60,105 nt of DNA from Gammaproteobacteria bacterium (GCA_047611905.1 JBLFWZ010000003.1:1-60105), one strand, 5' to 3'. Counted from the first letter of the stretch, positions 20,000 to 58,780 are shown. The notes: generated from the sequence alone by a model not told the origin. Numbers and translations: made by a program.

Positions 20000-20112
20000 G
20001 GTTTACTCTCCATTTTCGCGCCGGTCCGACAATCGGCAAATCGTAATGCAGTTTCGGACCGCGCCTAGTACTCCGACAGTACAATATGGTCGGAGAAATA
20101 ACGGTTGCGTCT

Positions 20113-22176: not shown

Positions 22177-22501
22177 ATGAGATCCTCGTATTAAAAATCT
22201 TAGCTGGGTCCGGTTCCGCTCGTGAACGAAAATATCGGCGCTCGGCGGCTTGAACGTGCGTTCAAAGCAGCGATAAATGCATGTCTGCACGATCAGGCGT
22301 TCGCCATGATAAGCGACGAAAAATCACTTTTACCGCACATCCCCCATTATTTCATTAGTGAAATAATGGCCGAGTATTTTCACTTTTGTGACTATACTGA
22401 CGGTACAATCATTACGCAATGCATATCAAATTGACACTAATTGCGGGTTCTATCGGTGCAGCGAGCACTTGGTTGAACCGCGACCAGTAGGGGGAAGGAC
22501 A

Positions 22502-24436: not shown

Positions 24437-24445
24437 TAACTAGCA

Positions 24446-33268: not shown

Positions 33269-36200
33269 ATGCATTGCGAAAACTGCCGACACACCAATAG
33301 CCCGAACGATAAGTTTTGCTCACAGTGTGGAACGCCACAAATTGCTCGATGCTCGGGCTGCAACGCGGATCTAAAGTTAGCTGCGAAGTTTTGTTCGGAC
33401 TGCGGGACAGCCGTCTCCAAGGCCGAATCTCCAGCCGCGCTGGATCTGCGGGCGACACCGTCACCGAGTCGCACTGTCGCAGATTACACGCCGAAGCATC
33501 TCGCAGAGAAGATCTTGCAATCGCGCTCGGCGCTCGAGGGCGAACGTAAGCAGGTCACGGTCCTGTTTGCCGATGTTAAAGGTTCAATGGACTTGGCCGC
33601 GCGAGTAGGGGCGGAGGATTGGCATGAATTGCTTGACCGCTTTTTCGCGATTTTAACCGAAGGCGTACATCGCTACGAAGGCACCATTAATCAGTACACG
33701 GGTGATGGCGTGATGGCTTTATTCGGTGCGCCCATTTCTCACGAAGATCATGCACAACGGGCGTGTTATGCAGCGGTGCAAATGCGCGACGAACTGCGTC
33801 GCCTATCGGTCGAATTGCGCATGGAAAAAGGCATCGACCTCGGCGTTCGCATGGGAATAAATTCTGGCGAGGTGGTGGTTGGAAGGATCGGCGACGATTT
33901 ACGCATGGATTACACGGCGCAAGGGCACACCGTTGGGGTTGCGCAGCGTCTTGAACAACTCGCGGAGTCCGGTCACGCCTATATCAGTGAGCATACCGCG
34001 CGCTTGGTTGAAGGATACTTTCAATTATCCGACCTAGGCACATCGAAAATATCCGGCTCCGATGTGCCGGTCGGTGTATTCGATCTGGATACCACAACCA
34101 ATGTCCGTACCCGGCTGCAAGTATCAAGATCGCGTGGTCTCACGCAGTTCGTCGGCCGTAAGGACGAAATGGATGCATTGAATGCCGCACTTGCCCGCGC
34201 GCGCAATGGCCATGGACAAGTAGTCGGCGTTGTGGGGGAACCCGGATTAGGCAAAAGCCGTTTATGTTTTGAATTTGTCGAGCGCTGCCGCGCACAAAGC
34301 ATACCGATCTACGAAGCGCATTGCCCATCTCACGGTCAACAGATCCCATTTATTCCTATCCGGGAATTATTCCGTAATTATTTCGATATCTCAGACCAAG
34401 ACACAGGGACTCAAGCGCGGCAGAAAATCGCCGGCATGTTGTTGCTGCTCGATCCGGAGATGCATAGCGGGTTGCCTGTGTTATTCGATTTTTTAGGGGT
34501 GGGCGATCCAGACCACCCGGTGGGATCAATCGAAGCCGACGTGCGTCAGCGACAAATGTTTGACTTACTCCACAAGATATCGCGGGTGCAAAACGAGCGT
34601 GGTCTGGCCTCACTTATTTTGATTGATGACTTGCATTGGATTGATAGCTGGAGCGACGAGTTTGTCGCTCAAATGGTTGAAGCAACTCAAGCAAGTCACA
34701 CGCTCTTGCTGGTTAATTTTCGACCGGAGTATCAAGCTAACTGGACTAGCAAGCCCTACTATCAGCAATTGCCGCTGGTACCACTTGGGGCGGACGACGT
34801 GCAACAAATGGTCACGAGCTTGTTAGGGGCTGATGCGTTAGTTCAGGTACTGATTGAGAAGATCAGGGACTGGACGACCGGTAACCCCTTGTACGCCGAA
34901 GAAGTCATAAATACCTTAATCGAAACCGGTCAGCTGCAAGGCAAGCTCGGGTCGTACCGCCTGAGTACAGATGTCGCGGCACTTGAAGTGCCAGCCAGTG
35001 TGCAAGCGATTATCGCGGCACGAATCGATCGCTTAACCGAACGCGATAAAACGCTTCTGCAGGCCGCCTCAGTTCTCGGCAAAGAGTTCTCACGGCCGAT
35101 CGTCGAAAAGGTAGCGAGTTTACCCGCGGGTGAATTCACGCCAACGATTGAAGCGCTTAAGAATGCGGACTTTATTTACGAGATCGCCTTATATCCAACC
35201 GTCGAATATTCGTTTAAGCATCCACTTGTGCACGAAGTAGCTTACGATTCGCAGCTAAGAGACCGGCGCGCCCAGGTCCACGCGGCCGCTGCAAGTGCGA
35301 TCGAGACTTTGGAATTCGAGCGGCTGGACGAATACGCTTCAATGCTCGCTTACCATTGGGAGAACGCCAATGTCTACGATGATGCCTTGCGCTGGCATCA
35401 ACGCGCCGCATTAGTTTTAAATCTTAGTGATCCGCGCGCCGCCTTGCATCATTGGACAAAAGTTCGAAGTCTTGTAGATATGGTAGACAATAAGGGGCAC
35501 GCGTTAACAGCCGGTGCACAAGCGTGCGGCGAAATGATGCACTTGCAGTGGCGCCTCGGCGAATCGGAAGCCGTGGCTCACGAACTATTTCGCGATGGTA
35601 GTTTACTCGCCGACCTTGCCGGCAACATTCCTGCCAAGGCGGTTCTCACAGCAAGCTACGCGGCGTTGCGCGGTATCTCCGGTGGCTATGCGAATGACTA
35701 CGTGCGCTACGGTGAAGAGGCCGCAATATTGGCGGCCCAGACGGACGATATCGAACTCAAACTGTGCATGCGTAGTTGGCACGTCTGGGGCCTGGCATTT
35801 CGCGGCGATAACGATGCAGTGGTGCTCGCGGCTAATGAAATTCTAGACGTGATTCCGACCGACCCTGAGATAGGAATAGCCTATTTCCCTGGCACCTTGC
35901 GCTGGTCCGTGTATTCGCAACGCGGGCTGGGTCTTGCGATGCAAGGCCAACGCGCTGCCGCATTTTCCGACTTCGAAACTTGTATTCGTGTCGCCGGCGG
36001 ACGCGCAGAATCAATTGGCTACTCAGCTCCGATCCTCAGCGTATTAGCAAACTACTTCGGTGATTTTGCGCGGGCGCTTAATCTGGCGCGAATCTCGCTC
36101 GAGATAACCGGATCGGATCCCGCTATTTTGGGCGCGACCGTTGCCATGGCATCGTGTTTCATTAATGAAGGTAAACTTGAGGAGGCTGCAATCTGGGGTC

Positions 36201-36646
36201 AGCGCGCGCATAGTTTGCTCGCGGAAAGTACGAGTTATTCGCCGATTCACCCGGTCGTTCACGCTGTTCTGGCAGATATTGAACTTGCCTTAGGAAACCC
36301 GCAAGAAGCGTCCCGTTTGGCCATCCAAACGATCGAATTTTGCCAGCCGAGAGAATTATTATGGTTTCCGGGTCCTTGGCTATCGCGGGCGCAGGCTTAC
36401 ACCGAGTTAAACGATCGCGATGGCGCGCATGCATCGCTACTCGAAGCGCAGGCTTTAATAGAAAGGAACAGCGCACGACTCCTTCAACCGTTTCTACACG
36501 AGCGCCAGGCGCATTTTGCGGCCGTGTTTAACGATGTTTGGCGCGAAGACCAGGAATTGGCCACGACACTGAGTCTATTCGAAGCAATGGGGGCTATTGA
36601 TCAGATCAGCCGTCTACAGCAAAAACTCGCGAAGACTCTTGCATGA
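33269..36646 (+). CDS. Double zinc-ribbon + class III nucleotidyl cyclase + STAND/AAA P-loop ATPase + TPR-like repeat protein (copy 1)
   Basis: 1125 aa. Zinc ribbons read CENC..CSQC and CSGC..CSDC. The cyclase domain reads ERKQVTVLFADVKGSMDL, YTGDGVMALFGAP and GINSGEVVVGRIG. Walker A is GVVGEPGLGKSRL and Walker B is LILIDDLHWID. A long helical-repeat C-terminus follows. Confidence 0.85.
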   Translation: MHCENCRHTNSPNDKFCSQCGTPQIARCSGCNADLKLAAKFCSDCGTAVSKAESPAALDLRATPSPSRTVADYTPKHLAEKILQSRSALEGERKQVTVLFADVKGSMDLAARVGAEDWHELLDRFFAILTEGVHRYEGTINQYTGDGVMALFGAPISHEDHAQRACYAAVQMRDELRRLSVELRMEKGIDLGVRMGINSGEVVVGRIGDDLRMDYTAQGHTVGVAQRLEQLAESGHAYISEHTARLVEGYFQLSDLGTSKISGSDVPVGVFDLDTTTNVRTRLQVSRSRGLTQFVGRKDEMDALNAALARARNGHGQVVGVVGEPGLGKSRLCFEFVERCRAQSIPIYEAHCPSHGQQIPFIPIRELFRNYFDISDQDTGTQARQKIAGMLLLLDPEMHSGLPVLFDFLGVGDPDHPVGSIEADVRQRQMFDLLHKISRVQNERGLASLILIDDLHWIDSWSDEFVAQMVEATQASHTLLLVNFRPEYQANWTSKPYYQQLPLVPLGADDVQQMVTSLLGADALVQVLIEKIRDWTTGNPLYAEEVINTLIETGQLQGKLGSYRLSTDVAALEVPASVQAIIAARIDRLTERDKTLLQAASVLGKEFSRPIVEKVASLPAGEFTPTIEALKNADFIYEIALYPTVEYSFKHPLVHEVAYDSQLRDRRAQVHAAAASAIETLEFERLDEYASMLAYHWENANVYDDALRWHQRAALVLNLSDPRAALHHWTKVRSLVDMVDNKGHALTAGAQACGEMMHLQWRLGESEAVAHELFRDGSLLADLAGNIPAKAVLTASYAALRGISGGYANDYVRYGEEAAILAAQTDDIELKLCMRSWHVWGLAFRGDNDAVVLAANEILDVIPTDPEIGIAYFPGTLRWSVYSQRGLGLAMQGQRAAAFSDFETCIRVAGGRAESIGYSAPILSVLANYFGDFARALNLARISLEITGSDPAILGATVAMASCFINEGKLEEAAIWGQRAHSLLAESTSYSPIHPVVHAVLADIELALGNPQEASRLAIQTIEFCQPRELLWFPGPWLSRAQAYTELNDRDGAHASLLEAQALIERNSARLLQPFLHERQAHFAAVFNDVWREDQELATTLSLFEAMGAIDQISRLQQKLAKTLA

Positions 36647-39600
36647 GTTTTCTCGAAGATATTTCTAAGGTGCGCGAGCACCTTAAAGAAAATGGGCGTA
36701 TTTCTTTTCGCGCACTGAAGCGCGAATTCAGCTTGGACGACGAGGGTCTTGAAGAGATCATCGAAGAACTCGTCGATATTCAGCAAATCGCGCGTCGTGA
36801 AGAAAAATTGTTGGCGTGGATAGGGGAGCCGAATGTCGTCGACCGTAGGTCTCAGTCGGACAAAAGTTCGTCGTCCAGAATAAATGCCGATCCGAGTAGC
36901 TACACACCGCAGCACCTCGCCGAGAAAATTCTGCAAAGTCGTGCGGCACTCGAAGGCGAACGAAAGCAAGTCACTGTTTTGTTCGCTGATGTAAAAGGGT
37001 CGATGGATTTAGCGGCGCAAGTCGGTGCGGAGAGTTGGCACGTCGTTCTCGACAGATTCTTCTCTATTTTGGGTGAAGGGATCCACCGTTACGAAGGAAC
37101 CATCAACCAATACACCGGAGACGGCGTGATGGCGTTGTTCGGCGCGCCAATCGCTCACGAAGATCACGCGCAGCGCGCTTGCTACGCGGCTTTGCAGTTG
37201 CGTGACGAATTACGCCGGTTATCCGTTGAGTTGCGCATGGAGCAAGGCATCGATTTCGATGTTCGCATTGGCATTAACTCAGGCGATGTAGTGGTGGGGA
37301 AAATCGGCGATGACCTGCGCATGGATTACACCGCTCAAGGTCACACCGTCGGGATCGCGCAACGGCTTGAACAACTGGCTGAAAGTGGCCACGTATACAT
37401 CAGCGAGCATACGGCGCGCTTAGTTGACAGCTATTTTAGTGTCACAGATTTGGGTAAATCGAAAATTTCCGGGTCGGAATCCGCGCTCGGCGTCTTTGAT
37501 CTTGATGATGCCACCCAAGTCCGCACGCGCCTGCAAGTGTCGCGCGCTCGCGGTTTGACGCAATTTGTTGGTCGTGATGACGAGATGCACTTATTGAAGT
37601 CGGCGCTGAAGCGCGCTCAATCTGGCTACGGTCAAGTCGTCGGTGTGGTCGGTGATCCGGGGCTGGGTAAGAGTCGTTTGTGTTACGAGTTCGTGCAAGC
37701 GTGCCGCCGCGAAGGAGTCGCGGTCTACGAGTGCCATTGCCCGTCCCATGGCAAGACAATCCCGTTTATTCCTATCTTGGAACTATTCCGGAATTATTTC
37801 GATATTTCGGTACGGGATTCGGCGTCCCAGGCGCGGCAGAAAATTGCCGGCACTTTGGTTTTGCTCGATTCATCTCTGCAAAACGCCCTGCCAAGCTTAT
37901 TCGATTTTCTTGGCGTCCATGACCCCAGTCTCACCGCGCCGCCAGCTGAACCGGATGCGCGTCAGCGCCAGCTTTTCGACATGGTGCATAAGATTGTCCG
38001 CGCGCAAAGCGAGCGCGGGGTCGCCGCGGTTGTGATGGTCGACGATCTTCACTGGGTGGACAATTGGAGCAATGAGTTCATCGGACAGATGGTCGAGGCG
38101 GTTGAGAACTCGCACACTCTGGTGTTGCTGAATTTTCGACCCGAGTACAGCGCGTCTTGGAGCGCAAAATCCTATTACCAGCAACTGCCACTGGTACCGC
38201 TCGGCGCCGATGCGGTCCGCGATTTAGTCGCCGGGCTGTTGGGGGAACACGAATCCGTACAAGCACTGACCGAGAAAATCATGCAATGGACGGCGGGCAA
38301 TCCGCTGTTTGCCGAAGAAGTGATCAATACCTTAATTGAGACGCAACAACTGGTGGGAAGACGCGGCTCCTATCGATTGACCCGAGACGTCACCGCACTT
38401 GATGTGCCGGCCACGGTGCAAGCGATTATCGCCGCGCGTATTGACCGTCTAGATGAGTTTGAGAAAACCCTATTACACGCCGCTTCCGTCGTGGGGAAAG
38501 AATTTTCACGAGCGCTCATAGAGCGGATATCGGGCATCCCTGCTGCGGTGCTTTCGTCAACCTTAGAGCGCCTTAAGACGTCCGACTTCATATTCGAAAC
38601 GGCGCTTTATCCGACGGTTGAATACTCGTTCAAACATCCTTTAGTGCGCGAAGTGGCTTACGAAACGCAGTTGCGCGATAAATTGGCCGAACGACACTCT
38701 ACAGTTGCGCTCGCCGTTGAAGAACTGGAAGAAAATCGCATTGACGAATTCGCCTCGATGCTCGCTTATCACTGGGAGCTGGCTCAAAACCACGACGAAG
38801 CATTGCTCTGGAATGAGCGCGCGGCAAAAGTTGCCAGCGGCAACGATCCGGTCGTTGCGCTAGCTCACTGGCGTAAAGTTAGAGCTTTGGTCGATGTGGT
38901 GGTGCCGAGTAAGGCGGTGTTTGCCATTGGAGCACAAGCGGTTGGTGCGATGATGCAGCTGCAATGGCGGATGGGGATCTCGCTAGAGGAAGCCGAGCAG
39001 CAATTTGAAGACGGCAGCGGGCTTGCCGAGAAAGCGGGTGACATCGCACTACAGGCGACCTTAACTGGCGGGTATTCAATTTCGCTCGGTTTGTCGAGCG
39101 GGTACGCGAAGCACTATGTCAGCTACGGCGCGAAAGCGGCTGAACTCGCCGATCAAACCGATGATTCAATGATTCAAAACACCATGCGTAACTGGGAAGC
39201 CTGGGGCTTGCTCATGTGTACTCGGCTCGATGAATCTGCGGCGCGTTTCGACGAAATTGCACTTCGGATCCCTGATGAACCGAACTATGGCGCGGAGATC
39301 GTATTTCCGAATTTGCACTGGTCGTACTTGCACGGACGGAGTTACGCTAATTGTATCCGCGGCAATATCGATCTCTGCAAGATCGATATTCGTAACGCAC
39401 GCAGTTCTATCGACCACCGCCATGAGATTCGAGCGTTTAGCGATGTCATGGAATTTCTAATGCTCTTCCCGTTGGGCGAATTTTCGCGTTCGAGGGCATT
39501 GGCGCAAAACGCACTTAGTGTTGCAGAGACCACGATGGCCCGAGTGTTAGCTTATATGGCAATGGCGCGTCAGCATTGGCACGACCGCGAATTCGACCAA

Positions 39601-40047
39601 GCAGAGAGCTTTGCGCGCAATTCATTAGAATTATCCGAAGCAGAAAACAGTTGCGGTTGTTGGCGTGGCGCGGTGCTTGCACCGCTTATTGAAACGGAAG
39701 TCGCCACGGGCAGAGCCGAATCCGGCAGGCAGCGCGGCCTCGAGGCGATCGCTTACTGTCACGAACGTGAGCTGTACTGGGATATGCCGTTATGGCTGGC
39801 GCTGGCGCGAGCCTGCACGGTTGTTGGTGATCAAGACGGCGCTGTTGCTGTGCTCGATGAATTAGAACAGATCATCAATCGCTGCAACGCTAATCTTTAC
39901 CGACCTTTTTTACATGAGTATCGAAGCGAATTCGCGACAAAGTATAAAGAACGTTGGGACGTAGATACCGAGCGACAACTGGCGATCAATGGATTCACGC
40001 TTCTCGGTGCCGAAGGACAGTTAGATCAACTAAAAAGTGCGCTCTAA
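36643..40047 (+). CDS. Winged-helix-like N-domain + class III nucleotidyl cyclase + STAND/AAA P-loop ATPase + TPR-like repeat protein (copy 2, paralogue of 33269..36646)
   Basis: 1134 aa. The cyclase and ATPase motifs match copy 1 (GVVGDPGLGKSRL, VMVDDLHWVD). The N-terminus is different (MSFLEDISKVREHLKENGRISFRALKREFSLDDEGLEEIIEELV). Its ATG overlaps the stop of copy 1 (ATGA 36643-36646). Confidence 0.85.
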   Translation: MSFLEDISKVREHLKENGRISFRALKREFSLDDEGLEEIIEELVDIQQIARREEKLLAWIGEPNVVDRRSQSDKSSSSRINADPSSYTPQHLAEKILQSRAALEGERKQVTVLFADVKGSMDLAAQVGAESWHVVLDRFFSILGEGIHRYEGTINQYTGDGVMALFGAPIAHEDHAQRACYAALQLRDELRRLSVELRMEQGIDFDVRIGINSGDVVVGKIGDDLRMDYTAQGHTVGIAQRLEQLAESGHVYISEHTARLVDSYFSVTDLGKSKISGSESALGVFDLDDATQVRTRLQVSRARGLTQFVGRDDEMHLLKSALKRAQSGYGQVVGVVGDPGLGKSRLCYEFVQACRREGVAVYECHCPSHGKTIPFIPILELFRNYFDISVRDSASQARQKIAGTLVLLDSSLQNALPSLFDFLGVHDPSLTAPPAEPDARQRQLFDMVHKIVRAQSERGVAAVVMVDDLHWVDNWSNEFIGQMVEAVENSHTLVLLNFRPEYSASWSAKSYYQQLPLVPLGADAVRDLVAGLLGEHESVQALTEKIMQWTAGNPLFAEEVINTLIETQQLVGRRGSYRLTRDVTALDVPATVQAIIAARIDRLDEFEKTLLHAASVVGKEFSRALIERISGIPAAVLSSTLERLKTSDFIFETALYPTVEYSFKHPLVREVAYETQLRDKLAERHSTVALAVEELEENRIDEFASMLAYHWELAQNHDEALLWNERAAKVASGNDPVVALAHWRKVRALVDVVVPSKAVFAIGAQAVGAMMQLQWRMGISLEEAEQQFEDGSGLAEKAGDIALQATLTGGYSISLGLSSGYAKHYVSYGAKAAELADQTDDSMIQNTMRNWEAWGLLMCTRLDESAARFDEIALRIPDEPNYGAEIVFPNLHWSYLHGRSYANCIRGNIDLCKIDIRNARSSIDHRHEIRAFSDVMEFLMLFPLGEFSRSRALAQNALSVAETTMARVLAYMAMARQHWHDREFDQAESFARNSLELSEAENSCGCWRGAVLAPLIETEVATGRAESGRQRGLEAIAYCHERELYWDMPLWLALARACTVVGDQDGAVAVLDELEQIINRCNANLYRPFLHEYRSEFATKYKERWDVDTERQLAINGFTLLGAEGQLDQLKSAL

Positions 40048-40138: not shown

Positions 40139-41353
40139 TTGAACACTGAGCACTTATTAACGGGGATCCGAATCCTCGATCTGACCCGCGTACTCGCTGG
40201 TCCAACGTGCACGCGCTTGTTTTCTGAAATGGGAGCCGACGTCATTAAGGTTGAGTCGGGGCCAGACGGCGATATGGTGCGCAACATTTCAAAGATGCGT
40301 AACGAACGTAGCCTTTACTTGATACAACAAAATTTGAACAAACGTAGCTTCTGCGTCGATTTCCGTAAGTCCGAAGGGCTTGCCTTGATCCGCGAGTTGG
40401 TTCCGCACTGCGATGTCGTCGTAGAGAACTTTCGCCCCGGTGTGATGGATAAGATGGGATTCGGGTACGAAGCACTCAAAGCATTGCGTGAAGATATCAT
40501 CCTCTGTTCGATTTCTGCTTTAGGACAAAGCGGACCGCTGTCACATAAGCCCGGTTACGATCCGATTGCTCAGGCTTATTCGGGAATCACGTCAATGATT
40601 GGTGAGCCGGACGAATTGCCAGTTTTACCAAGCGTAGGACTCGGTGACGTGAGCACCGGTACGCACGCGGCATTCGCGATCGCTGCAGCATTGTTACACC
40701 GGCATCGCACGGGTCGCGGTCAAGCCTTAGATATCGCGCTGCTCGATTGCTACTACCATTACCACGAGGCAGGCGTGCACCAAGTGAGCGCCAGTGACGG
40801 GGCCATGGAACCTACTCGCGGCGGGCGCCATTTCTCCTATGTGTGTCCGGTCGGGATATTTCCGGTGAAGGATCGAAGCCTGGTGCTAGTCGCGTTTCTG
40901 CATCACTGGCCAGATCTGTGCTCAGCAATGAACCGACCGGACCTCGCGGAGGATCCGTTATATGCTCTCGACGCCGAGCGGGTGCTGCGCCGCGACGAAG
41001 TGAACGGGCTCATTACGGACTGGCTTGATACGTTCGCGGATGTGTCTGCGGCCATTACAAAGCTGGAAGAACATGGCATTCCCTGCGCACCGGTTCTGAG
41101 CGTTAAAGAGACAGTAACGCATCCCCATTTTCTTGCCCGCGGTACCGTCCGTACGGTAGTCGACCCGATTGCAGGTTCATTCCAGATCCCTGGCATGCCG
41201 ATTAAAACGTCGGAGTATCCGGCCGACAATCCCTACGTCGCGCCGCTTCTGGGCGAACATAACGAAGCAATATTGCGTGAGTTACTCGGCAAGAATGAGG
41301 CCGAAATAAGCGCCCTGGTGAACGACGGCGTATTAGTAGCGGGCGACAACTAA
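40139..41353 (+). CDS. Family III CoA-transferase (CaiB/BaiF family)
   Basis: 404 aa. LTGIRILDLTRVLAGPTCTRLFSEMGADVIKVE is the family N-terminal signature. TTG start. Confidence 0.85.
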   Translation: MNTEHLLTGIRILDLTRVLAGPTCTRLFSEMGADVIKVESGPDGDMVRNISKMRNERSLYLIQQNLNKRSFCVDFRKSEGLALIRELVPHCDVVVENFRPGVMDKMGFGYEALKALREDIILCSISALGQSGPLSHKPGYDPIAQAYSGITSMIGEPDELPVLPSVGLGDVSTGTHAAFAIAAALLHRHRTGRGQALDIALLDCYYHYHEAGVHQVSASDGAMEPTRGGRHFSYVCPVGIFPVKDRSLVLVAFLHHWPDLCSAMNRPDLAEDPLYALDAERVLRRDEVNGLITDWLDTFADVSAAITKLEEHGIPCAPVLSVKETVTHPHFLARGTVRTVVDPIAGSFQIPGMPIKTSEYPADNPYVAPLLGEHNEAILRELLGKNEAEISALVNDGVLVAGDN

Positions 41354-46006: not shown

Positions 46007-47221
46007 TTAAGCGTTGATATAACGTTCAGCGACTTTAAGACGATGACGCAATATCAATTCTTGGTCTTGCAGATATATTTCTTTTTTTACCCCAGACATC
46101 AACATCGTTTGGGTTCTCTCTAACGTGCTGCCGTCTTCTAGTAAGGTGTCGCGAAAGAAACACTTGCCGTATTCCTGTGAGAAGCGCCCGGCTAAGTTGG
46201 CTGCCCGCGGGGAATAGGTACGGATCTCCCAACGGCAACGGTCTTCGGCGAGTGGCCAGAAGGTGTGTGTCAGATAGGTCGCGTTAGAGACATAGAGCAG
46301 GCAGTTGGGGAACAACGAAATTCCATCAAACGACCAATTCTCAGCGTCGGTGGGATTAACCCCAGGCGGGAAGCTCGCCTTGTCAGTATTGACTTGTTGC
46401 AACACGACATCGCCAAACTTTCCAGCTAATGTTTCTACCGCGGTGGGATTCCATTCGGGGTTCGCGGCTAAGGACACGCGTCCATGCTTGTCGTAGAGAG
46501 CGAACTCTAAAGCGTTGGCCCAAGGGTTCGATTTGCTCGCGTAGACGTTGCCGATCATCCGATGATGCAAAGTCGGAATGTGATAGATCTCGGCAAACGC
46601 ATCGTGGGCCACTTTCCAGTTGGCGTTAACGTCCGTGTACCAGGAAAAGCAGTTACCCGACAGTTTGTCAAAAGGATAACCCTCGATGCTCGCTTGGAGC
46701 TCCGTGCCTAAATAGTCCGATAAGGACTCGGAAGGGTTTGCATCGATGTTGATAAAGATGAAGCCGTTCCAAACGTCCGCCGACACTGGGCTCATGCCCA
46801 TACTCGCTTTGTCCATGTCGAAAAAGTTATCTTCGTCCGTGACGTGGCGTAGCGATCCATCGGTGTTGTAAACCCAACCGTGGAAGCGGCATGTAAATGC
46901 CCGGCACGTGCCTTTGCTATCCCATACCAACTGATTGCCGCGATGCGTGCACATATTGTGAAATGCCCGCACCGTCCCGTCCTTGCCGCGAACAATAATG
47001 ATGGATGTTTTACACACGGCTAATTCTTTAACGAAATAATCGCCAGCGTTCGGGATTTGTTCAATCCGACCGACGTTCAGCCATACTTTACTAAAGATCC
47101 GGTCACGCTCTTTTTCGAAATATTCTCTTGAGATATACGGTTCGACCGGCACCGGACCCGTGCCGATATCGGGGTAGCGCTCTGTCCATTTGAGATTACG
47201 CGGTGTTTGTACGCTGGCCAT
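46007..47221 (-). CDS. Rieske [2Fe-2S] non-haem iron oxygenase, alpha (catalytic) subunit, copy 1
   Basis: 404 aa. The Rieske motif reads CTHRGNQL...CRFHGW. The mononuclear iron motif reads NWKVAHDAFAEIYHIPTLHH. Confidence 0.85.
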   Translation of the reverse strand: MASVQTPRNLKWTERYPDIGTGPVPVEPYISREYFEKERDRIFSKVWLNVGRIEQIPNAGDYFVKELAVCKTSIIIVRGKDGTVRAFHNMCTHRGNQLVWDSKGTCRAFTCRFHGWVYNTDGSLRHVTDEDNFFDMDKASMGMSPVSADVWNGFIFINIDANPSESLSDYLGTELQASIEGYPFDKLSGNCFSWYTDVNANWKVAHDAFAEIYHIPTLHHRMIGNVYASKSNPWANALEFALYDKHGRVSLAANPEWNPTAVETLAGKFGDVVLQQVNTDKASFPPGVNPTDAENWSFDGISLFPNCLLYVSNATYLTHTFWPLAEDRCRWEIRTYSPRAANLAGRFSQEYGKCFFRDTLLEDGSTLERTQTMLMSGVKKEIYLQDQELILRHRLKVAERYINA

Positions 47222-47588: not shown

Positions 47589-47772
47589 TAGTCTCAGTTT
47601 TGGAATCGGTTGTAGCTCAAGCGCTTGTTCATCATAGTGCTTCGTTCAAAGGAGCTGCAAGCACACAGACAGCCTGTACCCTCAGACAACCTGGCTGTGC
47701 TAATCGAGTAGCTGCCCGCCCATGAGCACAATGCTATGGTCTAGTTCTGGTCCGCGGACCACCAAGTTAACA

Positions 47773-48201
47773 ATGGAGAATGATTTAATGCCGAATGAAG
47801 CTGAGTCACGTGCGACAAATAAATCAATCATCGCAGAGTTTTTCAAAGCCTTATCGAGCGGCGACGTAGTGCGCATTGGGAAATTCTTGAGTGACGATTG
47901 TAGCTGGTGGGTCTCCGGAACCGTCGCCGGGATTTCCGGGACGTATAACAAAACGGAAACTTTGGCCTTGTTGGAACAAGTGACTCAGGTTTATAAGAGC
48001 GGCGCTTTAAAAATCGACCCATCAAATATGATCGCCGAAGGCAAACGAGTGGCTGTCGAAGCAGAATCCTATGCCGAACTGCATAACGGCAAGGTCTACA
48101 ACAATCTATATCATTACGTATTCGACCTGGAGAGCGGCAAAATTAAATCGTTCAAGGAATACATGGACACGCAACATGTCCAGGACACCTTCGTTGAATG
48201 A
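47773..48201 (+). CDS. SnoaL-like / NTF2-fold protein
   Basis: NKSIIAEFFKALSSGDVVRIGKFLSDDCSWWVSG... is the typical SnoaL/ketosteroid-isomerase-like N-terminus. The start is uncertain (47722, 47773 or 47788). Confidence 0.65.
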   Translation: MENDLMPNEAESRATNKSIIAEFFKALSSGDVVRIGKFLSDDCSWWVSGTVAGISGTYNKTETLALLEQVTQVYKSGALKIDPSNMIAEGKRVAVEAESYAELHNGKVYNNLYHYVFDLESGKIKSFKEYMDTQHVQDTFVE

Positions 48202-48230: not shown

Positions 48231-49448
48231 TTATGCGTTGAGGTAGCGTTCAATCATTTTGAAATTATGCCGAATCAATAGCTCTTCGTCGCACAGGTAG
48301 AATTCTTTCTTTGCGCCGGAGGCGAGCATGCTCTGCGTTTTTTCGAAGATGCCGCCGTCTTCGGCCATCACGCCGTCAAGAAACGTCGAGCGACTGTATT
48401 CTTGAGAGAATCGTTCCGCCATGGTCGTTGCCTTGGGGAAGTAGATTCGCGATTCCCATAACGTTCGATCTGCGGCGAGCGGCCAAAATGAATGAGTGAG
48501 AAAGCCGCCTTCGGAAACGAAGATCGAGGTGTTTGGAAAGCAATTGAATCCCGAGAATGACCAGTCTTCGGACTTCGTGGGATTCACGCCGGGCGGCATT
48601 CCTTCGGAGGAAATACCTTGTTTTTGTAACGTCAAAATGCCGAAGCGTTTCGCCAATTCCTCGACTGGGGTTGCGTCCCATTCGATGTTCGCGGGTACTG
48701 AGATACGGGCGTGCGGATCGAACAGTGCAAGTTCGTGCGAATTTAGGTACGGGTTGGTGGGGCTCGCAAACATGCGGCCGGTGCTACGGTTGTGCAAGCT
48801 AAAGATGTGGTAGACCTCTTGAAACGCGTCTTTTCCGACCTTCCAGTTGGCGTTAACTTCTACCTGCCAGGAAAAGCATGCCGTCGCGATCTCGCCAAAT
48901 GGATAGCCGTTGAAGCTTGCGCCGGCCTCGCCTAAATATTCTGTTAAGGATTGGCTCGGTTCTGGATCGACGTTGATATAGATAAAACCTTCCCATACAC
49001 CCACTGCTACGGGGGTTAGTCCGAGTTTCGTTTTATCGATGCCAAAGAATTTTTTCTCGTCCGAGATATGTCTCAAGCTTCCATCAAGTGCGTAGGTCCA
49101 GGCATGGTACTTACAGCTAAACGCTTTGCATTTGCCTTTGCTGTCCCAAGCCAAGCGATTACCGCGATGCGAACACATATTGTGAAACGCGTGCACCTCA
49201 CCATCGTCGCCGCGCGTGACGAGAATAGAGGTCTGGCAAATGGCTAAGTCTTTGACGAAGTAATCGCCCGTATCCGGGATCTGTTCAACCCGGCCAATAT
49301 TCAGCCAAACTTTGCGAAAGATTTTCTCTCGTTCTTGTTCAAAAAACTCAGGCGATACATACGGTTCTATCGGAAGCGGCCCGGTGCCGAGTTCTGGATA
49401 ACGGTCGTGCCATTTGGTATCACTGTTTTCTTTTACTCGAGCGTGCAT
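48231..49448 (-). CDS. Rieske [2Fe-2S] non-haem iron oxygenase, alpha subunit, copy 2 (paralogue of 46007..47221)
   Basis: 405 aa. It has CSHRGNRL...CKYHAW and NWKVGKDAFQEVYHIFSLH. It is colinear with copy 1 over the full length, with well over half the residues identical by eye. Confidence 0.85.
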   Translation of the reverse strand: MHARVKENSDTKWHDRYPELGTGPLPIEPYVSPEFFEQEREKIFRKVWLNIGRVEQIPDTGDYFVKDLAICQTSILVTRGDDGEVHAFHNMCSHRGNRLAWDSKGKCKAFSCKYHAWTYALDGSLRHISDEKKFFGIDKTKLGLTPVAVGVWEGFIYINVDPEPSQSLTEYLGEAGASFNGYPFGEIATACFSWQVEVNANWKVGKDAFQEVYHIFSLHNRSTGRMFASPTNPYLNSHELALFDPHARISVPANIEWDATPVEELAKRFGILTLQKQGISSEGMPPGVNPTKSEDWSFSGFNCFPNTSIFVSEGGFLTHSFWPLAADRTLWESRIYFPKATTMAERFSQEYSRSTFLDGVMAEDGGIFEKTQSMLASGAKKEFYLCDEELLIRHNFKMIERYLNA

Positions 49449-50800: not shown

Positions 50801-51060
50801 GATGGATCTCCTAGGTAGGGGGCTGGACCGTTAACATGGACCCGCATATCGGGGTGCTCGAGACGCAGTCTCGGAATCGACAACAATGCCGGTCGTCGCA
50901 ATATCGCCGCCCGGTAAACTAGCACAATTGCGCTCTAAGGTGCGCCTCAATCGCGACGTCGACACGTAGTGCTGCCGACGCGCTTCGTCAAGCCCGGACA
51001 TTGGTGTAAAAGCCGGATAATATTCCGTTCAGGTTGTTGCATTTAAGATGTGAACGCGCC

Positions 51061-52230
51061 ATGAGTTCTGAAGATTTTTACACGCAACTGTTTGAGCATC
51101 GCCTCTCGATTAGCGAATTGTTGGGCGAGCCACAGCATTTCCGTTCGGTGCCTGCCGACTGGCATGTCGTCATTACCGACATCAAGGGTTCTACTGAACT
51201 CGTGGCTTTGGGCCATCACGAAACGATTAATCTTATTGCCACTGGCAGCATTATCGCCGCCTTGAACATTGCCTACGCGCGAAATATCGAAATTCCTTTT
51301 TTCTTCGGCGGCGACGGTGCGACTTTGTTAGTGCCGGAGAAATTACTCGACGAAACCCTCCAGGCGCTAGAAGAACATAGTCGCAACACGATAAATAATT
51401 ACGCGATGACATTGAGAGTGGGATCGTTGCAAGTCGCGAATGTCGTTGAACAAGGACATTCGATAGAGCTCGCCAAGCTTTTTCGCAACCAGGCGTTTTC
51501 CATACCAATCGTCGTCGGTGACGGACTCGTGTTTGCCGAAAAATTGATCAAGGACCGCAATGAAAATCTGATACCGAAGGTGATAGAAGAGGAATCAAAT
51601 TTAGATTTAACGGGTATGGAGTGTCGCTGGGATCGAATCGGACCCCCGCTCGAAAGCGGGGAAGTCGTGTGCCTGCTAGTGAACGTGTTGAACCAACAAT
51701 ATTCCGCTAGGGTGCTGAAATCTGTTATCGATCATATCGATGCGGTTTATGGCCCGCGGCCGCTTCGAAATCCGATTTCGAAAGAACGCCTACGGCTGGA
51801 TTCGAGCGCTGCTGCGATCGCGAAAGAAACCACAGTAAAGCTCGGTCGCTACGATTGGCGCTATGCCATCGAGCATTGGTTACGCACGGCGCTTATCGGG
51901 CCGGCGTTTATGCGCTACACAGCCGATGGCCAAGGCTATGTCGCCAGTGTGCCAGAGCTATCCGACACGCTCACGATCGACGGACGAATTAACACCGTTA
52001 TTGCGGGCACGGGCGAACAAAGGAGGAAACTAATAGCGGAACTCGATCGCTTGGAAGAGGGCGGCGCGATTGCGTACGGTCTGTATGCTACTTCGGCCAG
52101 TATCATGTCGTGTTACGTGCGTAATCGAGAAGATCAGCATATTCATTTTATCGACGGTGCCGATGGCGGCTACACCCAAGCGGCGACCCTGTTGAAGCGT
52201 AAACTTCGTGAGCGATCGCCGCCCGACTAA
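51061..52230 (+). CDS. DUF3095-family protein (nucleotidyl-cyclase-like fold suspected)
   Basis: WHVVITDIKGSTELV ... FFFGGDGATLLVP mimic the two metal-Asp motifs of class III cyclases (F.DI.GfT / GDG....F). I recall this pattern as DUF3095. ATG 51061 is preferred over TTG 51034. Confidence 0.5.
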   Translation: MSSEDFYTQLFEHRLSISELLGEPQHFRSVPADWHVVITDIKGSTELVALGHHETINLIATGSIIAALNIAYARNIEIPFFFGGDGATLLVPEKLLDETLQALEEHSRNTINNYAMTLRVGSLQVANVVEQGHSIELAKLFRNQAFSIPIVVGDGLVFAEKLIKDRNENLIPKVIEEESNLDLTGMECRWDRIGPPLESGEVVCLLVNVLNQQYSARVLKSVIDHIDAVYGPRPLRNPISKERLRLDSSAAAIAKETTVKLGRYDWRYAIEHWLRTALIGPAFMRYTADGQGYVASVPELSDTLTIDGRINTVIAGTGEQRRKLIAELDRLEEGGAIAYGLYATSASIMSCYVRNREDQHIHFIDGADGGYTQAATLLKRKLRERSPPD

Positions 52231-52355
52231 CGAACGTTCAATTTGAATCGGTTTCTTCCCCATCTCCCAACCCATTGCCGGAGTCCGGAGTTTGGGCCGC
52301 TACAGCGGCCGGTGTCGTTCGGAACCTTGAACGCCTAAATCCAATCGTCGACACA

Positions 52356-53159
52356 TCACATCTTGGAGCCACCAGGATTGAACTCAAAGGGTTCGCGCCA
52401 CTCGTCTGGTAGGTCGACGATTGCCCCAGGTGTGTCGCAGCTTTCTGCCATGGTTAAGCAGTGACGTAATATTTTCGTCTGCATTTCAATATCGAAAGGT
52501 TTGCCGAAGGCGTTACCCATTGGATAATTTACGAAGACACTGCGTGGCGGTCGAACTTGTGCAGTGAGATCTCGCCCCGTCGACAAACAAACTGTTGCGA
52601 TGCCGCTTTCTTCAACCACTCGACAAACCAGACCCACGGTCTGGTGATCAAGAGGTCATGCGGGGACGGCAATGAGTAAATCAACTTCGTCGTTGCGTAG
52701 TTGATCTACGAACGCTGGCGCAGATTCCTGGATCACTTTACTACGATCGTAAATGCGTCCCATGAATCCACTCCAAAATCTCGACGCAAGCGAACCGATC
52801 TCTCCGGCATCAAGCAGTTCGCGCAGCCGATCGATTGGAAACTGACAATTTATATCGCGTTGTGCGTCCTCGTGATCGTAGTACGCATCGTGGATCTGGA
52901 AATCGTCGTTAGCCACATCAGCAGGTATCGAATCAAGTCGGTGGTCGTTGCGCGACATCGGATCCCACGCCGGCATAGCGCATTGCGAAATACCGCCTGA
53001 GGTAAGCAGCGTTACCCGGGATTCGCGTGCTGGTCGATCCAAGCGATGTAAAGGGGCGTCCTGATTAACCGTCCAGTCATACGGTGGGTGGCCCATTGCG
53101 CCGTAGTAACTCGCAAGTCCCTCGGCATAACGTATCGGTTGCTGTTGCCAGTTTTGCAT
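52356..53159 (-). CDS. PrdB/GrdB-family (glycine/sarcosine/betaine/D-proline reductase component B-like) candidate selenoprotein; in-frame TGA at 52658..52656 read as Sec
   Basis: ORFs 52656..53159 and 52356..52637 share a frame and are separated only by TGA plus 6 codons. The read-through sequence is ...DINCQFPIDRLRELLDAGEIG...VDLLIAVPA-U-PLDHQTVGLVCRVVEESGIAT..., which matches the layout I recall around the PrdB/GrdB Sec. A hairpin follows the UGA. Confidence 0.65.
52627..52645 (-). promoter_or_regulatory. SECIS-like hairpin 11 nt downstream of the in-frame UGA
   Basis: On the minus strand: UGA-CCUCUUGAUCA-CCAGACC-GUG-GGUCUGG. This is a perfect 7-bp stem (8 bp with the flanking A-U) and a 3-nt loop starting with G. 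The GTG in the loop is the false start of ORF 52356..52637. Confidence 0.55.
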
Positions 53160-53358
53160 CCTTAGCTCCTTCCAAATAGCCGGTGTCAGTAAATTGTACC
53201 GTTAATTCCTGTTTAGCGGGACGCGCGCCATACTTTCGACACAAGCAGTTATGTTCGTCCGCAGCGCGCTACACTTTCTCGGTACGGCACGGTAGTCGAG
53301 ATAATTGCGGCGGCATCAAATAAGATTGCACGCAGACATTGCGCCATGAGAATAAAAA

Positions 53359-54126
53359 TTGCGTCAAATATTTCAGCTTTGCCAGCGTGTTTACAATATG
53401 GGCGACTTGTTGGCTCCGGTTATTACTGAGCGCCTATTCGACGTCCCGGTCCACCGCGTCTATGGCGCCCAGACAAACGATTTTAAAGAACGGCCCTTGT
53501 TGGCCGGGCTCGGGAGTATTTTGGCAAATTTTGGCGACCTAAATGTTCACGTCTGGGGTGCGGGATACGAACCGGGTTATATATTTCGACGTTACATGAG
53601 GGCCCCGGGTTCGCGCCTGGGATGGAAAATACACGCCGTACGGGGGCCGCATACTGCTGCGGTTCTACGCGCCGGTAGCGAGGTTGTCCTCGGTGATCCA
53701 GGTTTGCTCGTGCCGAGATTTTACGAGCCAAAATCGGTTCAGCACGAACCAGGTCGATACTTTACGCACTGCGAGAACAAGCCAAGCGATGTGACAGTTG
53801 ATCTTCCAACGCTCAGCACAGCGCAGGAGGCGTTCGCCGTGGTCGATGCAATCGTCGCGAGCGATTTCGTCTTTACCGAAGCATTGCATGTGGCCATCGT
53901 TGCACAAGCCTTTAAGGTTCCTTGGGCTTGGAGTCTCAATAGCCACACGCGCGGCGTGTTCAAATGGTTCGATTGGTTTGCGAGTATCGGTATTGAGCCA
54001 CGCTGCTTCGATTACACAGAAGTCCAAGGCGCAAAGCGCTGGGCGCTGGACGCGCATCGGCGAGCGCAGCCTCCTTCGAGCGAGGCGCTACTGCGAGCTT
54101 TCCCGCGAGAACTACTGGAAGACTAA
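53359..54126 (+). CDS. Polysaccharide pyruvyl transferase family protein (ExoV-like)
   Basis: NMGDLLAPVITERLF (compare NFGDdLn..lw), HAVRGPHTAAVL, TEALHVAIVAQAFKVPWAW and KWFDWFASIG resemble the ExoV-type motifs I recall. TTG start at 53359 (alternative ATG 53398). Confidence 0.5.
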   Translation: MRQIFQLCQRVYNMGDLLAPVITERLFDVPVHRVYGAQTNDFKERPLLAGLGSILANFGDLNVHVWGAGYEPGYIFRRYMRAPGSRLGWKIHAVRGPHTAAVLRAGSEVVLGDPGLLVPRFYEPKSVQHEPGRYFTHCENKPSDVTVDLPTLSTAQEAFAVVDAIVASDFVFTEALHVAIVAQAFKVPWAWSLNSHTRGVFKWFDWFASIGIEPRCFDYTEVQGAKRWALDAHRRAQPPSSEALLRAFPRELLED

Positions 54127-57184: not shown

Positions 57185-57981
57185 GCAGCTCCGCGGCACA
57201 AGCAAATCTATACGCGGCGAGCCATCGTATCGTCGAACTGAGTCGCGCGCTTAGCAGCGAATTAAGCAAACAAGACATCGACGAAAAGACCCGGGGTTTT
57301 TTGCTACGAATGTCGAATTCTGCCGGCGAACTAGATCTAGCGCTCAATCGGACTGGCGAGCCTAACGAAAGCTCGCGTGAGTACCTACACACAATCCGCA
57401 ACCATTTAAATCAAATTTCAGGACCGTGCCAGCTCCTGCTTCGGCGCCTCGGCGCGCTCGCGCAAGAACCGCTGGCAGAAATTGAAAAACTCGTTCGCGA
57501 CTGCGCGGAATTACTAGAGCCCGGATCGCTGTCGTGCGAAACGGTGGTTGTCGCCTCAAGTCGCTCCGCTGAGCCCGTGCTTGCGCCCTCGGCGGCTAGG
57601 ATTCTGGTTGCAGAAGATAACCTCGCTAATCGACAACTGCTTACTGACGTACTAATTGACGAAGGTCACCTTGTCGAACTTGCTAGCGATGGGGTCGAGG
57701 CGTTGGCGCTTGCCGAAAGTGCGGATTTCGATTTGCTGTTACTCGATTTGGGCTTACCGAAAATTAGCGGATTTGAGGTTCTGGAACGTCTCCAAGCTCG
57801 CGGTTGGCAGACACCAGTTATCGTCGTCACGGGTCGAAGCGCCGTGCACGACGCCGTTCGTTGTATTGAGCATGGCGCGGACGACTTTTTAACTAAGCCT
57901 ATTCAAATCGAAATATTGCGCGTAAGGGTCAATTCCTGTGTGGAAAAGATGCGCTTGCGCGAGCGCGAATTTGGTCAATGA
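57181..57981 (+). CDS. Helical HPt/DHp-like N-domain + receiver domain protein
   Basis: The C-terminal REC reads ARILVAEDNLANRQLL, DLLLLDLGLPKISG, VIVVTG and TKP. The N-terminal ~130 aa are helical, with LHTIRNHLNQISG reminiscent of a phosphotransfer His helix. Its ATG overlaps the upstream stop (ATGA 57181-57184). Confidence 0.7.
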   Translation: MSSSAAQANLYAASHRIVELSRALSSELSKQDIDEKTRGFLLRMSNSAGELDLALNRTGEPNESSREYLHTIRNHLNQISGPCQLLLRRLGALAQEPLAEIEKLVRDCAELLEPGSLSCETVVVASSRSAEPVLAPSAARILVAEDNLANRQLLTDVLIDEGHLVELASDGVEALALAESADFDLLLLDLGLPKISGFEVLERLQARGWQTPVIVVTGRSAVHDAVRCIEHGADDFLTKPIQIEILRVRVNSCVEKMRLREREFGQ

Positions 57982-58780
57982 GCTTCCGAGTCACGATGCT
58001 GAAGTTTCTGTTTTGTTTTGTGATATCCGAAGCTTCACTGCGATTAGTGAGCGCCTCGCACCCGACATCACAATGCGTTGGCTGCGTGCTGTGATGCATG
58101 AATTATCCGAGCTTATTATTGATAACGAAGGGGTGTTGGTTGATTTTGCCGGCGACGAAATCATGGCAATGTGGGGCGCCCCTGAGGCGGCCCAAGAACA
58201 CGCGACTCGGGCCTGCAACACTGCGGTACAGATCTTGGAACGGCTACCGACAGTAAGCGCCAAGTGGCACGAGCAGATTGGCGTCGAAACGGATCTTGCG
58301 ATTGGCGTTAATTCCGGACGTGCGATGGTTGGCCACATTGGTACCGCACGCAAAACGAAATATGGACCGCTCGGTGACACCGTCAATATTGGCAGCCGTA
58401 TTTTAGGCGCGACGGCTCACTTGAGAACTCGCTTACTAATTTCTGGGCAAACTCGTGCTGCTGTTGATCAACATTGGACGAACGGATCGTTGCGGCGCTT
58501 GTGCCAGGTTCGGATGAAGAATTTGGCCCAGAGCGTTGAGTTGTTCGAGCTCAGACCCCTATCCGCCAGCACATTGCCGAATGATTTGACCAACCGATAC
58601 GAGCAGGCCCTCGCTTGCTATGAATCGCAGTCGCTACAACAAGCCGCCGCCTTGCTTGGCCAACTACTCGTTGATTATCCGGACGACGGGCCATCATTGA
58701 TGCTGATGTCGCGGGTTGTGGCAGCCATGTTGGACGAAGACTTGATACTCGATACGGTGTGGACCTTACCGAGTAAGTAA
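57938..58780 (+). CDS. Class III adenylate/guanylate cyclase catalytic domain protein with short C-terminal TPR-like tail
   Basis: It has EVSVLFCDIRSFTAISE, FAGDEIMAMWGAP, IGVNSGRAMVGHIG and YGPLGDTVNIGSRI, which are canonical CHD motifs. No in-frame ATG precedes the domain. It would start at GTG 57938 (44-nt overlap with the upstream gene) or TTG 57970, or be a frameshifted continuation of the REC gene. Confidence 0.7.
   Translation: MWKRCACASANLVNELPSHDAEVSVLFCDIRSFTAISERLAPDITMRWLRAVMHELSELIIDNEGVLVDFAGDEIMAMWGAPEAAQEHATRACNTAVQILERLPTVSAKWHEQIGVETDLAIGVNSGRAMVGHIGTARKTKYGPLGDTVNIGSRILGATAHLRTRLLISGQTRAAVDQHWTNGSLRRLCQVRMKNLAQSVELFELRPLSASTLPNDLTNRYEQALACYESQSLQQAAALLGQLLVDYPDDGPSLMLMSRVVAAMLDEDLILDTVWTLPSK

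Follow-up and report, generated by a model that had tools for sequence, protein, structure and literature searches.

The question raised by positions 52356..53159 of a 60,105-nucleotide stretch of DNA from a Gammaproteobacteria bacterium (GCA_047611905.1 JBLFWZ010000003.1:1-60105; the whole stretch is called the window below) is whether two neighbouring open reading frames (ORFs) on the minus strand are separate genes or the two parts of a single selenoprotein gene, joined by a TGA that is read as selenocysteine (Sec). A preliminary description, made from the sequence alone, had proposed the second possibility and had pointed to a hairpin resembling a bacterial selenocysteine insertion sequence (SECIS) just beyond the TGA. 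Three lines of evidence now support that proposal: a cysteine/selenocysteine column in the homologues that coincides with the TGA, 98 distinct TGA-containing forms of the gene, and conservation of the hairpin. On this comparative evidence, 52356..53159 is very probably one gene, encoding a 267-residue selenoprotein of the PrdB/GrdB (PF07355) superfamily in which UGA168 would specify Sec.

A single reading frame across an in-frame UGA

The minus-strand frame 53159..52356 consists of 267 sense codons and a terminal stop, and its sole internal stop is the TGA at codon 168. Translation places the ATG start at 53159..53157, the true stop, also TGA, at 52358..52356, and the in-frame UGA, the predicted Sec codon U168, at 52656..52658; the features of this gene are all on the minus strand. 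In the ORF listing the frame appears as two pieces, an upstream one of 167 aa with an ATG start (52656..53159) and a downstream one of 93 aa with a GTG start (52356..52637). Translation and the ORF listing confirm the claim of the preliminary description that the two pieces share a frame, and its further claims could be read directly from the sequence: the TGA is followed by six sense codons (P L D H Q T) before the GTG, and this GTG (52637..52635) forms the loop of a perfect hairpin whose stem begins 11 nt after the UGA. A Shine-Dalgarno-like AGGAG, also read from the sequence, lies at 53166..53170, 6 nt upstream of the ATG at 53159; no comparable motif is present in the sequence upstream of the GTG at 52637.

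Elsewhere in the window TGA behaves as an ordinary stop. It terminates 11 of the 38 long ORFs, including the PrdB-like gene itself, and a reassigned genetic code is therefore unlikely. A scan of the window for other same-frame ORF pairs split by one TGA returned, besides 52356..53159, only off-frame or adjacent-gene artefacts.

The residue expected at codon 168 was sought among homologues. A database search with the read-through protein yielded 834 of them, the full-length members being approximately 260-279 aa long and 50-64% identical to the window protein; uninterrupted, Cys-containing homologues align at 62% identity over about 95% of its length. All 17 full-length homologues that were aligned carry cysteine at the TGA column, in the context VPA-C-PLDHQT, and the Sec of Clostridioides difficile PrdB falls in the same column. 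The coincidence of TGA and Sec/Cys column that the preliminary description had proposed as a check is thus observed, and the homologues run through this position as continuous polypeptides with Cys at the column, not as two genes and not with some other residue.

The nearest relatives in the databases (73-98% identical) are entries of 167-168 aa ending in ...VPA, and are therefore truncated at the same TGA codon. Public gene calls that end at the Sec codon after 167 aa include P0003, P0011, P0080, P0098 and P0108, among others; P0098 is an NCBI record from a metagenome-assembled genome (MAG) and bears the name "selenoprotein B family protein". An independent contig of the Joint Genome Institute (JGI; L208) carries an identical 167-aa piece (363-866), with the C-terminal 93 aa called separately (885-1166). 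The Sec forms of this subfamily, which is recognizable by the motif U-PLDHQTVGLV, are often mis-annotated by automatic gene calling.

The column was also examined at the DNA level, in two scans of species-representative genomes, which gave 98 distinct sequences with TGA and nine with TGT or TGC. Most TGA forms belong to Gammaproteobacteria (Pseudomonadales, Azotimanducaceae) and Alphaproteobacteria, and further examples were found in Deltaproteobacteria, Myxococcota, Hydrogenedentota, Actinomycetota and one spirochaete MAG. Each of the 95 sequences that do not run off a contig keeps the frame open for at least 95 codons past the TGA. Among the 98 forms the downstream peptide PLDHQTVGLV is conserved, with P-L-D at codons +1 to +3 in every one, and as protein the PLDHQT stretch that leads from the TGA to the GTG is invariant. 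The same TGA arrangement is found in a near relative (L002) that is syntenic with the window. An altered code, a sequencing error, a pseudogene or two separate genes would not yield this pattern at the TGA column.

A conserved hairpin downstream of the UGA

The core hairpin, ACCAGACC-GUG-GGUCUGGU, occupies 52627..52645 and has a perfect 8-bp stem and a GUG loop (52635..52637); read from 52645 to 52627, it encodes H-Q-T-V-G-L-V. The stem core CCAGACC begins 11 nt past the UGA, which places the hairpin 10-11 nt downstream. Bacterial SECIS elements have by consensus an upper stem of 4-16 bp, a UGA-to-loop distance of 16-37 nt and a minimum free energy (MFE) of -7.5 kcal/mol or below (PMC13188914), and the window hairpin agrees with the published description in all four of the features compared (GUG loop, 8 bp, 18-nt spacing, and an MFE of -11.7 kcal/mol for the isolated hairpin). 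An 81-nt region folds with -32.4 kcal/mol (z = -3.1 against dinucleotide shuffles, equalled by 2 of 200 shuffles), and the hairpin exceeds chance expectation.

The hairpin is conserved among the Sec forms. All eight stem pairs form in 87 of the 98 sequences and seven of the eight in 10 more; taken singly, each upper-stem pair forms in 93-100% of the sequences, and the upper stem is the sole consensus structure that RNAalifold recovers. As the stem encodes a conserved peptide, the informative positions are the synonymous ones. Third-position entropy within the stem is 0.28 bits at Thr+6, 0.00 at Gly+8 and 0.08 at Leu+9, compared with 1.55-1.85 bits at the flanking four-fold sites Pro+1, Val+10, Arg+12, Gly+18 and Thr+21. 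Put as codons, Gly+8 is GGU in all 94 Gly codons, Thr+6 is ACC in 94 of 98 sequences, and 97 of 98 have a Leu+9 codon ending in G. The constraint on synonymous sites coincides exactly with the stem, while the neighbouring four-fold sites are free to vary. One stem pair, G24:C34, is able to change synonymously on both sides, and it has changed from G:C to A:U (CAG/CUG to CAA/UUG) in 12 of the 98 sequences, with unpaired CAA/CUG intermediates in three.

An extended stem can be drawn over 52614..52658, in which the UGA region and codons +1 to +3 pair with codons +11 to +15, and the 45 nt that start at the UGA fold with an MFE of -23.7 kcal/mol. Of the 98 sequences, only 33-88% form the individual pairs of this lower helix, and double changes are absent from it; because the lower helix is not conserved, it was not counted in the functional element, and it may be non-functional. 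A single Sec form has two broken pairs in the upper stem, in an alphaproteobacterial MAG (L042:6484-6555, CBDBCB010000021.1), where GGU has become GAU (Gly to Asp) and CUG has become CUA; this may be a decaying copy or an assembly error.

The element resembles the SECIS of Escherichia coli fdhF in being a stem-loop within the coding region, just 3' of the UGA, and in the window hairpin the small apical loop opens with G-U, the upper stem has 8 bp and the spacing is 18 nt. The minimal fdhF element must sit 11 nt from the UGA. The two differ in that they have no sequence similarity, and the bulged U of fdhF is absent from the perfect stem of the window hairpin.

The Cys forms also bear on the interpretation of this hairpin as a SECIS and of UGA168 as a Sec codon. 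In its favour, the nine Cys forms from genomes have GGC, GGG or GGA at the Gly codon, several with Ile or Ala substitutions that destroy the stem, and the hairpin is lost in more distant Cys forms. Several observations weigh against it. Two of the three closest Cys relatives, TGC/TGT forms on metagenome contigs (L209:2143-2931 and L211:2664-3446, the homologue pair P0001/P0004), retain the full 8-bp hairpin (ACC .. GGU CUG). It is thus not strictly exclusive to Sec forms. The simplest reading of these two cases is a "fossil SECIS" left after recent replacement of Sec by Cys, and they also leave room for another role of the hairpin. Covariation is confined to one stem pair, the sequences are phylogenetically related, and most stem positions are fixed by the peptide as well. 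The SECIS identity put forward in the preliminary description gained support from the published consensus, from conservation, from synonymous constraint and from the one compensatory pair, and none from Rfam: no family in it, SECIS models included, matched the whole window at gathering thresholds or 52300..53250 at E <= 10. Bacterial SECIS elements share little sequence (PMC13188914), and this null result is therefore weak negative evidence. With regard to the insertion machinery, Pfam scans covered 38 window ORFs of at least 200 aa and one of 159 aa (47722..48201), and SelA, SelB and SelD were absent among them. ARAGORN detected no tRNA, and hence no tRNA-Sec, in the 60-kb window, and a combination of ARAGORN and tblastn with an E. 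coli SelD sequence found nothing in 1.4 Mb comprising the window and related loci. Sec genes are normally unlinked to selenoprotein genes, so their local absence is uninformative.

The same absence, together with the persistence of relic hairpins in close Cys forms, would fit a host with no working Sec pathway, in which translation would end at the UGA with a truncated product, or a near-cognate tRNA (Trp or Cys) would allow some low-level read-through, and the hairpin would be left as a relic. This is improbable, given the purifying selection on the TGA, on the wobble positions of the hairpin and on 99 downstream codons over 98 genomes; a dead codon would not persist in all close lineages, and the syntenic relative keeps the arrangement. 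The division of the gene into 167 + 93 aa by gene callers, and the existence of many Cys homologues, could also be accounted for by a nonsense mutation or a sequencing or assembly error, the gene being a pseudogene or the codon a true TGC or TGT. That account is exceedingly improbable, because the same TGA recurs in independently assembled genomes of several phyla (98 distinct sequences) with intact, conserved frames downstream, because the identical 167-aa piece was recovered on the independent JGI contig, and because a SECIS-type hairpin is conserved with synonymous constraint. Automatic pipelines do call both ORFs, as would be expected if they were two true neighbouring genes, one for a 167-aa protein that stops at the TGA and the other for a 93-aa protein that begins with the GTG at 52637; the probability of this arrangement is negligible. 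The Cys homologues are single polypeptides over the junction, the PrdB alignment covers both halves, the PLDHQT segment between TGA and GTG is invariant as protein, and the GTG itself sits inside a hairpin loop with no Shine-Dalgarno sequence before it. An AlphaFold model made from the alignment (predicted local distance difference test score, pLDDT, 88.6; predicted template modelling score, pTM, 0.90) is moreover a single compact alpha/beta domain that extends across the TGA.

If 52356..53159 is one selenoprotein gene, the ribosome would reach UGA168 and would not read it as a stop. By analogy with the established bacterial mechanism, the hairpin at 52627..52645 would act as a SECIS and bind SelB-GTP-Sec-tRNA(Sec), so that decoding would depend on SelB; selenocysteine would be delivered to the ribosome, and translation would run on for 99 more codons.

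Family placement and relation to known selenoproteins

The read-through protein passes the Pfam GRDB model (PF07355) with 24.8 bits against a gathering threshold of 22; residues 45-163 correspond to model positions 224-343 of 347, and the match ends near the end of the model, just before the Sec site. The best NCBIfam match is PrdB (TIGR04483, E = 1.4e-38), with 132.7 bits against an equivalog cutoff of 300. The GrdB, GrdF and GrdH models gave 25-31 bits against cutoffs of 65-800, the two GrdB models TIGR01917 and TIGR01918 reaching 27.7 of 602.2 and 25.5 of 65.45 bits, respectively, with a protein of 267 aa.

For a closer comparison, prdB loci were fetched from genomes with a query sequence that was itself confirmed in real C. 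difficile DNA. PrdB of C. difficile has the sequence ...VVMTAG-U-GTCHRTAVIVQRAIEEAGIPT... and is 31% identical to the window protein over 231 aa (E = 2e-36), with Sec aligned to Sec (TGA168), His to His, and the Cys of UxxC to Asp171. PrdB proteins (TIGR04483; Clostridium sticklandii, C. difficile) and the window protein are similar in size (241 and 267 aa) and have in common the blocks DINCxFPIDRL, FMG, a His after the Sec motif, EExGIxT and PMG..G.P...EMQT. The blocks cited in the preliminary description (DINCxFPIDRLxEL, VD... and EExGIxT) align with C. difficile PrdB. Its assignment to PrdB/GrdB was right as to the superfamily, given the GRDB threshold passed and the best NCBIfam match, and needs amending as to orthology: with scores below the equivalog cutoffs, no UxxC and no PrdA nearby, the protein belongs to a divergent PrdB-like subfamily and is not a PrdB/GrdB orthologue.

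The differences from both known enzymes are considerable. A UxxC redox motif is listed for PrdB/GrdB at the Sec site (PMC9312934, PMC13188914); it is U-G-T-C in C. difficile PrdB, whereas U-P-L-D stands in its place in the window protein and its subfamily. At the C. difficile locus, PrdA (PF09338) is encoded upstream of prdB, and PrdD, PrdE and proline racemase (PrdF) downstream, whereas tblastn gave no match to PrdA, PrdD, PrdE or PrdF over a total of 1.4 Mb comprising the window and 127 related loci. PF09338 had no match among the Pfam-scanned window ORFs (38 + one), an unlinked copy elsewhere being possible. There is likewise no sigma-54 regulator near the window gene, and its host is a proteobacterium with an aerobic gene context, in contrast to a Stickland-fermenting Firmicute. 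GrdB, GrdF and GrdH (PF07355) are related to the window protein through the GRDB threshold passed over residues 45-163, but GrdB-type proteins are approximately 430 aa long and carry a UxxCxxC motif (PMC13188914), compared with 267 aa and U-P-L-D here, and no grdA, C, D or E genes are present in the window. The window protein thus lacks those defining features of D-proline reductase and glycine reductase that were tested.

The best NCBIfam match, and the label "D-proline reductase PrdB" that JGI and older papers give to homologues, would nonetheless favour a true PrdB, or the GrdB of a glycine, sarcosine or betaine reductase, with a part in reductive amino-acid metabolism of the Stickland type. 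This is very improbable in view of the low bit scores, the replacement of UxxC by U-P-L-D, and the blank tblastn searches for PrdA, D, E and F over the 1.4 Mb. The neighbouring genes are, in addition, oxygen-dependent (Rieske oxygenases, luciferase-like monooxygenases, FMO-like PF00743), and such neighbourhoods argue against Stickland-type metabolism. Judged by its sequence, the window protein is best placed as a PrdB homologue in the stand-alone "U-PLDHQTVGLV" subfamily, which is found mainly in Gammaproteobacteria (Pseudomonadales) and Alphaproteobacteria.

Sec168 would occupy the catalytic Sec position of PrdB and, by homology, is presumably the redox-active nucleophile of a reductase. For regeneration of the selenol, the best internal candidate would be Cys105 of the DINC motif, which is invariant among the aligned homologues and conserved in PrdB too; a thiol reductant from outside the protein is just as possible. 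Only 74 of the 98 Sec forms have Cys179 (U+11), which is therefore unlikely to be essential. Because there is no UxxC resolving Cys and no PrdA partner nearby, the protein probably acts on a substrate other than D-proline. It may be proposed tentatively, and with somewhat less than even confidence, that the U-P-L-D subfamily is a stand-alone, PrdA-independent selenoenzyme with the PrdB/GrdB fold and a chemistry that differs from amino-acid reduction of the Stickland type. Its role might be a reductive step within aerobic catabolism, as suggested by the recurrence of luciferase-like or FMO-like monooxygenases, an O-methyltransferase, family III CoA-transferases and acyl-CoA dehydrogenases among the neighbouring genes.

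The fold gave no functional lead, since it has no match in the PDB: phmmer against PDB sequences retrieved no solved PrdB or GrdB structure and only a short local ClpP match, and Foldseek of the AlphaFold model against the PDB gave nothing at E <= 0.001. The ClpP match (chains of 2f6i, E = 2.8e-4) involves the C-terminal motif PMGNAFGKPFDIEMQTKIL (52456..52602, minus strand, residues 186-233) and lies around the ClpP segment QPLGNAFG..DIEIQT; this likeness is probably coincidental, as Foldseek supports no fold relationship.

Relatives of the window protein have been known for some time from marine metagenomes. In the Sargasso Sea set, "Proline reductase PrdB" ranked third in abundance among selenoprotein families, with 42 genes (Zhang, Fomenko, Gladyshev 2005, PMC1088965), and it was among the most abundant in the Global Ocean Sampling (GOS) data, with 235 Sec and 110 Cys forms (Zhang, Gladyshev 2008, PMC2398784). 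In the Sargasso supplement, AACY01049115 and AACY01465730 read ...APAuPLDHQTVGLVCR... (PMC1088965), and part of the GOS supplement holds at least six occurrences of the PLDHQ motif (PMC2398784). The GOS selenoprotein read JCVI_READ_1035033 and the window protein share 62% identity over 245 aa (E = 2e-122). The window protein has the same Sec-flanking sequence as this marine "PrdB" group, in both a hairpin whose apical loop contains G comes after the UGA, and there is no essential difference between them. Since the APAuPLDHQTVGLVCR motif is in the 2005 and 2008 supplements, the U-P-L-D subfamily has been recognised as a selenoprotein since 2005, and the window locus is one further member. It reveals neither a new recoding mechanism nor a new selenoprotein family; what it adds is a genome-anchored member of an ocean-abundant selenoprotein group.

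The motif listed in the two marine papers is UxxC, which fits members such as uGLC and UPVC but not the U-P-L-D subgroup, and the function of this subgroup and its lack of PrdA are not discussed there (PMC1088965, PMC2398784). A literature search for "PrdB-like" and "GrdB-like" proteins returned only unrelated Synergistota papers. With no UxxC, no PrdA nearby and aerobic gene neighbours, the label "PrdB" is probably misleading for the U-P-L-D subgroup; if its members are indeed stand-alone, PrdA-independent enzymes, a "proline reductase" label of 20 years' standing would be wrong for an abundant environmental selenoprotein. In annotation, the window locus is best recorded as one 267-aa selenoprotein (U168), not as fragments of 167 aa and 93 aa.

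Gene neighbourhood and other features of the window

The selenoprotein gene stands alone: on one side is a divergent gene without a Pfam match (53359..54126), on the other a convergent DUF3095 gene (51034..52230). Approximately 45 nt past its stop lies a GC-rich perfect hairpin, GGCCGC-TGTA-GCGGCC (52295..52310, minus strand), which has no T-run and was not called by the terminator scan; it may be a transcript-end structure common to this gene and the convergent DUF3095 gene. Beyond the DUF3095 gene are a luciferase-like monooxygenase, two Rieske oxygenase alpha subunits, a SnoaL-like protein and a thiolase-like protein. By Pfam, the two ring-hydroxylating alpha subunits form a paralogous pair on the minus strand (46007..47221 and 48231..49448) with the SnoaL-like protein between them, and a family III CoA-transferase (40139..41353) lies about 5 kb further along. 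These Rieske, SnoaL, thiolase, luciferase-like and CoA-transferase genes constitute an aerobic catabolic island adjoining the selenoprotein gene, and one of the Rieske proteins is 98.8% identical in the syntenic relative.

Clustering of flanking ORFs in 108 loci identified no conserved operon partner. The commonest partner, found in 32 loci, is a generic short-chain dehydrogenase, and an O-methyltransferase lies directly downstream in 24 of the 108. Other recurrent neighbours are luciferase-like monooxygenases, enoyl-CoA hydratases, acyl-CoA dehydrogenases, TauD dioxygenases, family III CoA-transferases and a P450, and at one locus (L210) an FMO-like (PF00743) flavin monooxygenase is immediately upstream.

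Two further groups of genes in the window were noted. Tandem overlapping plus-strand genes at 33269..36646 and 36643..40047 encode proteins of about 1,130 aa each that combine an adenylate/guanylate cyclase domain with an AAA_16 ATPase domain, one of them also with TPR, and a third, shorter cyclase-domain gene is located near the window end (57938..58780, plus strand). The region 18083..26899 contains genes for hydantoinase/oxoprolinase subunits A and B, for an FMN oxidoreductase of 682 aa that also carries a fused pyridine-nucleotide-disulphide oxidoreductase domain, and for a protein of 817 aa that combines DAO (FAD oxidoreductase) and GCV_T (aminomethyltransferase) domains, the architecture of dimethylglycine/sarcosine dehydrogenase. 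This region, approximately 26 kb from the selenoprotein gene, looks like a cluster for the catabolism of methylated amines or osmolytes.

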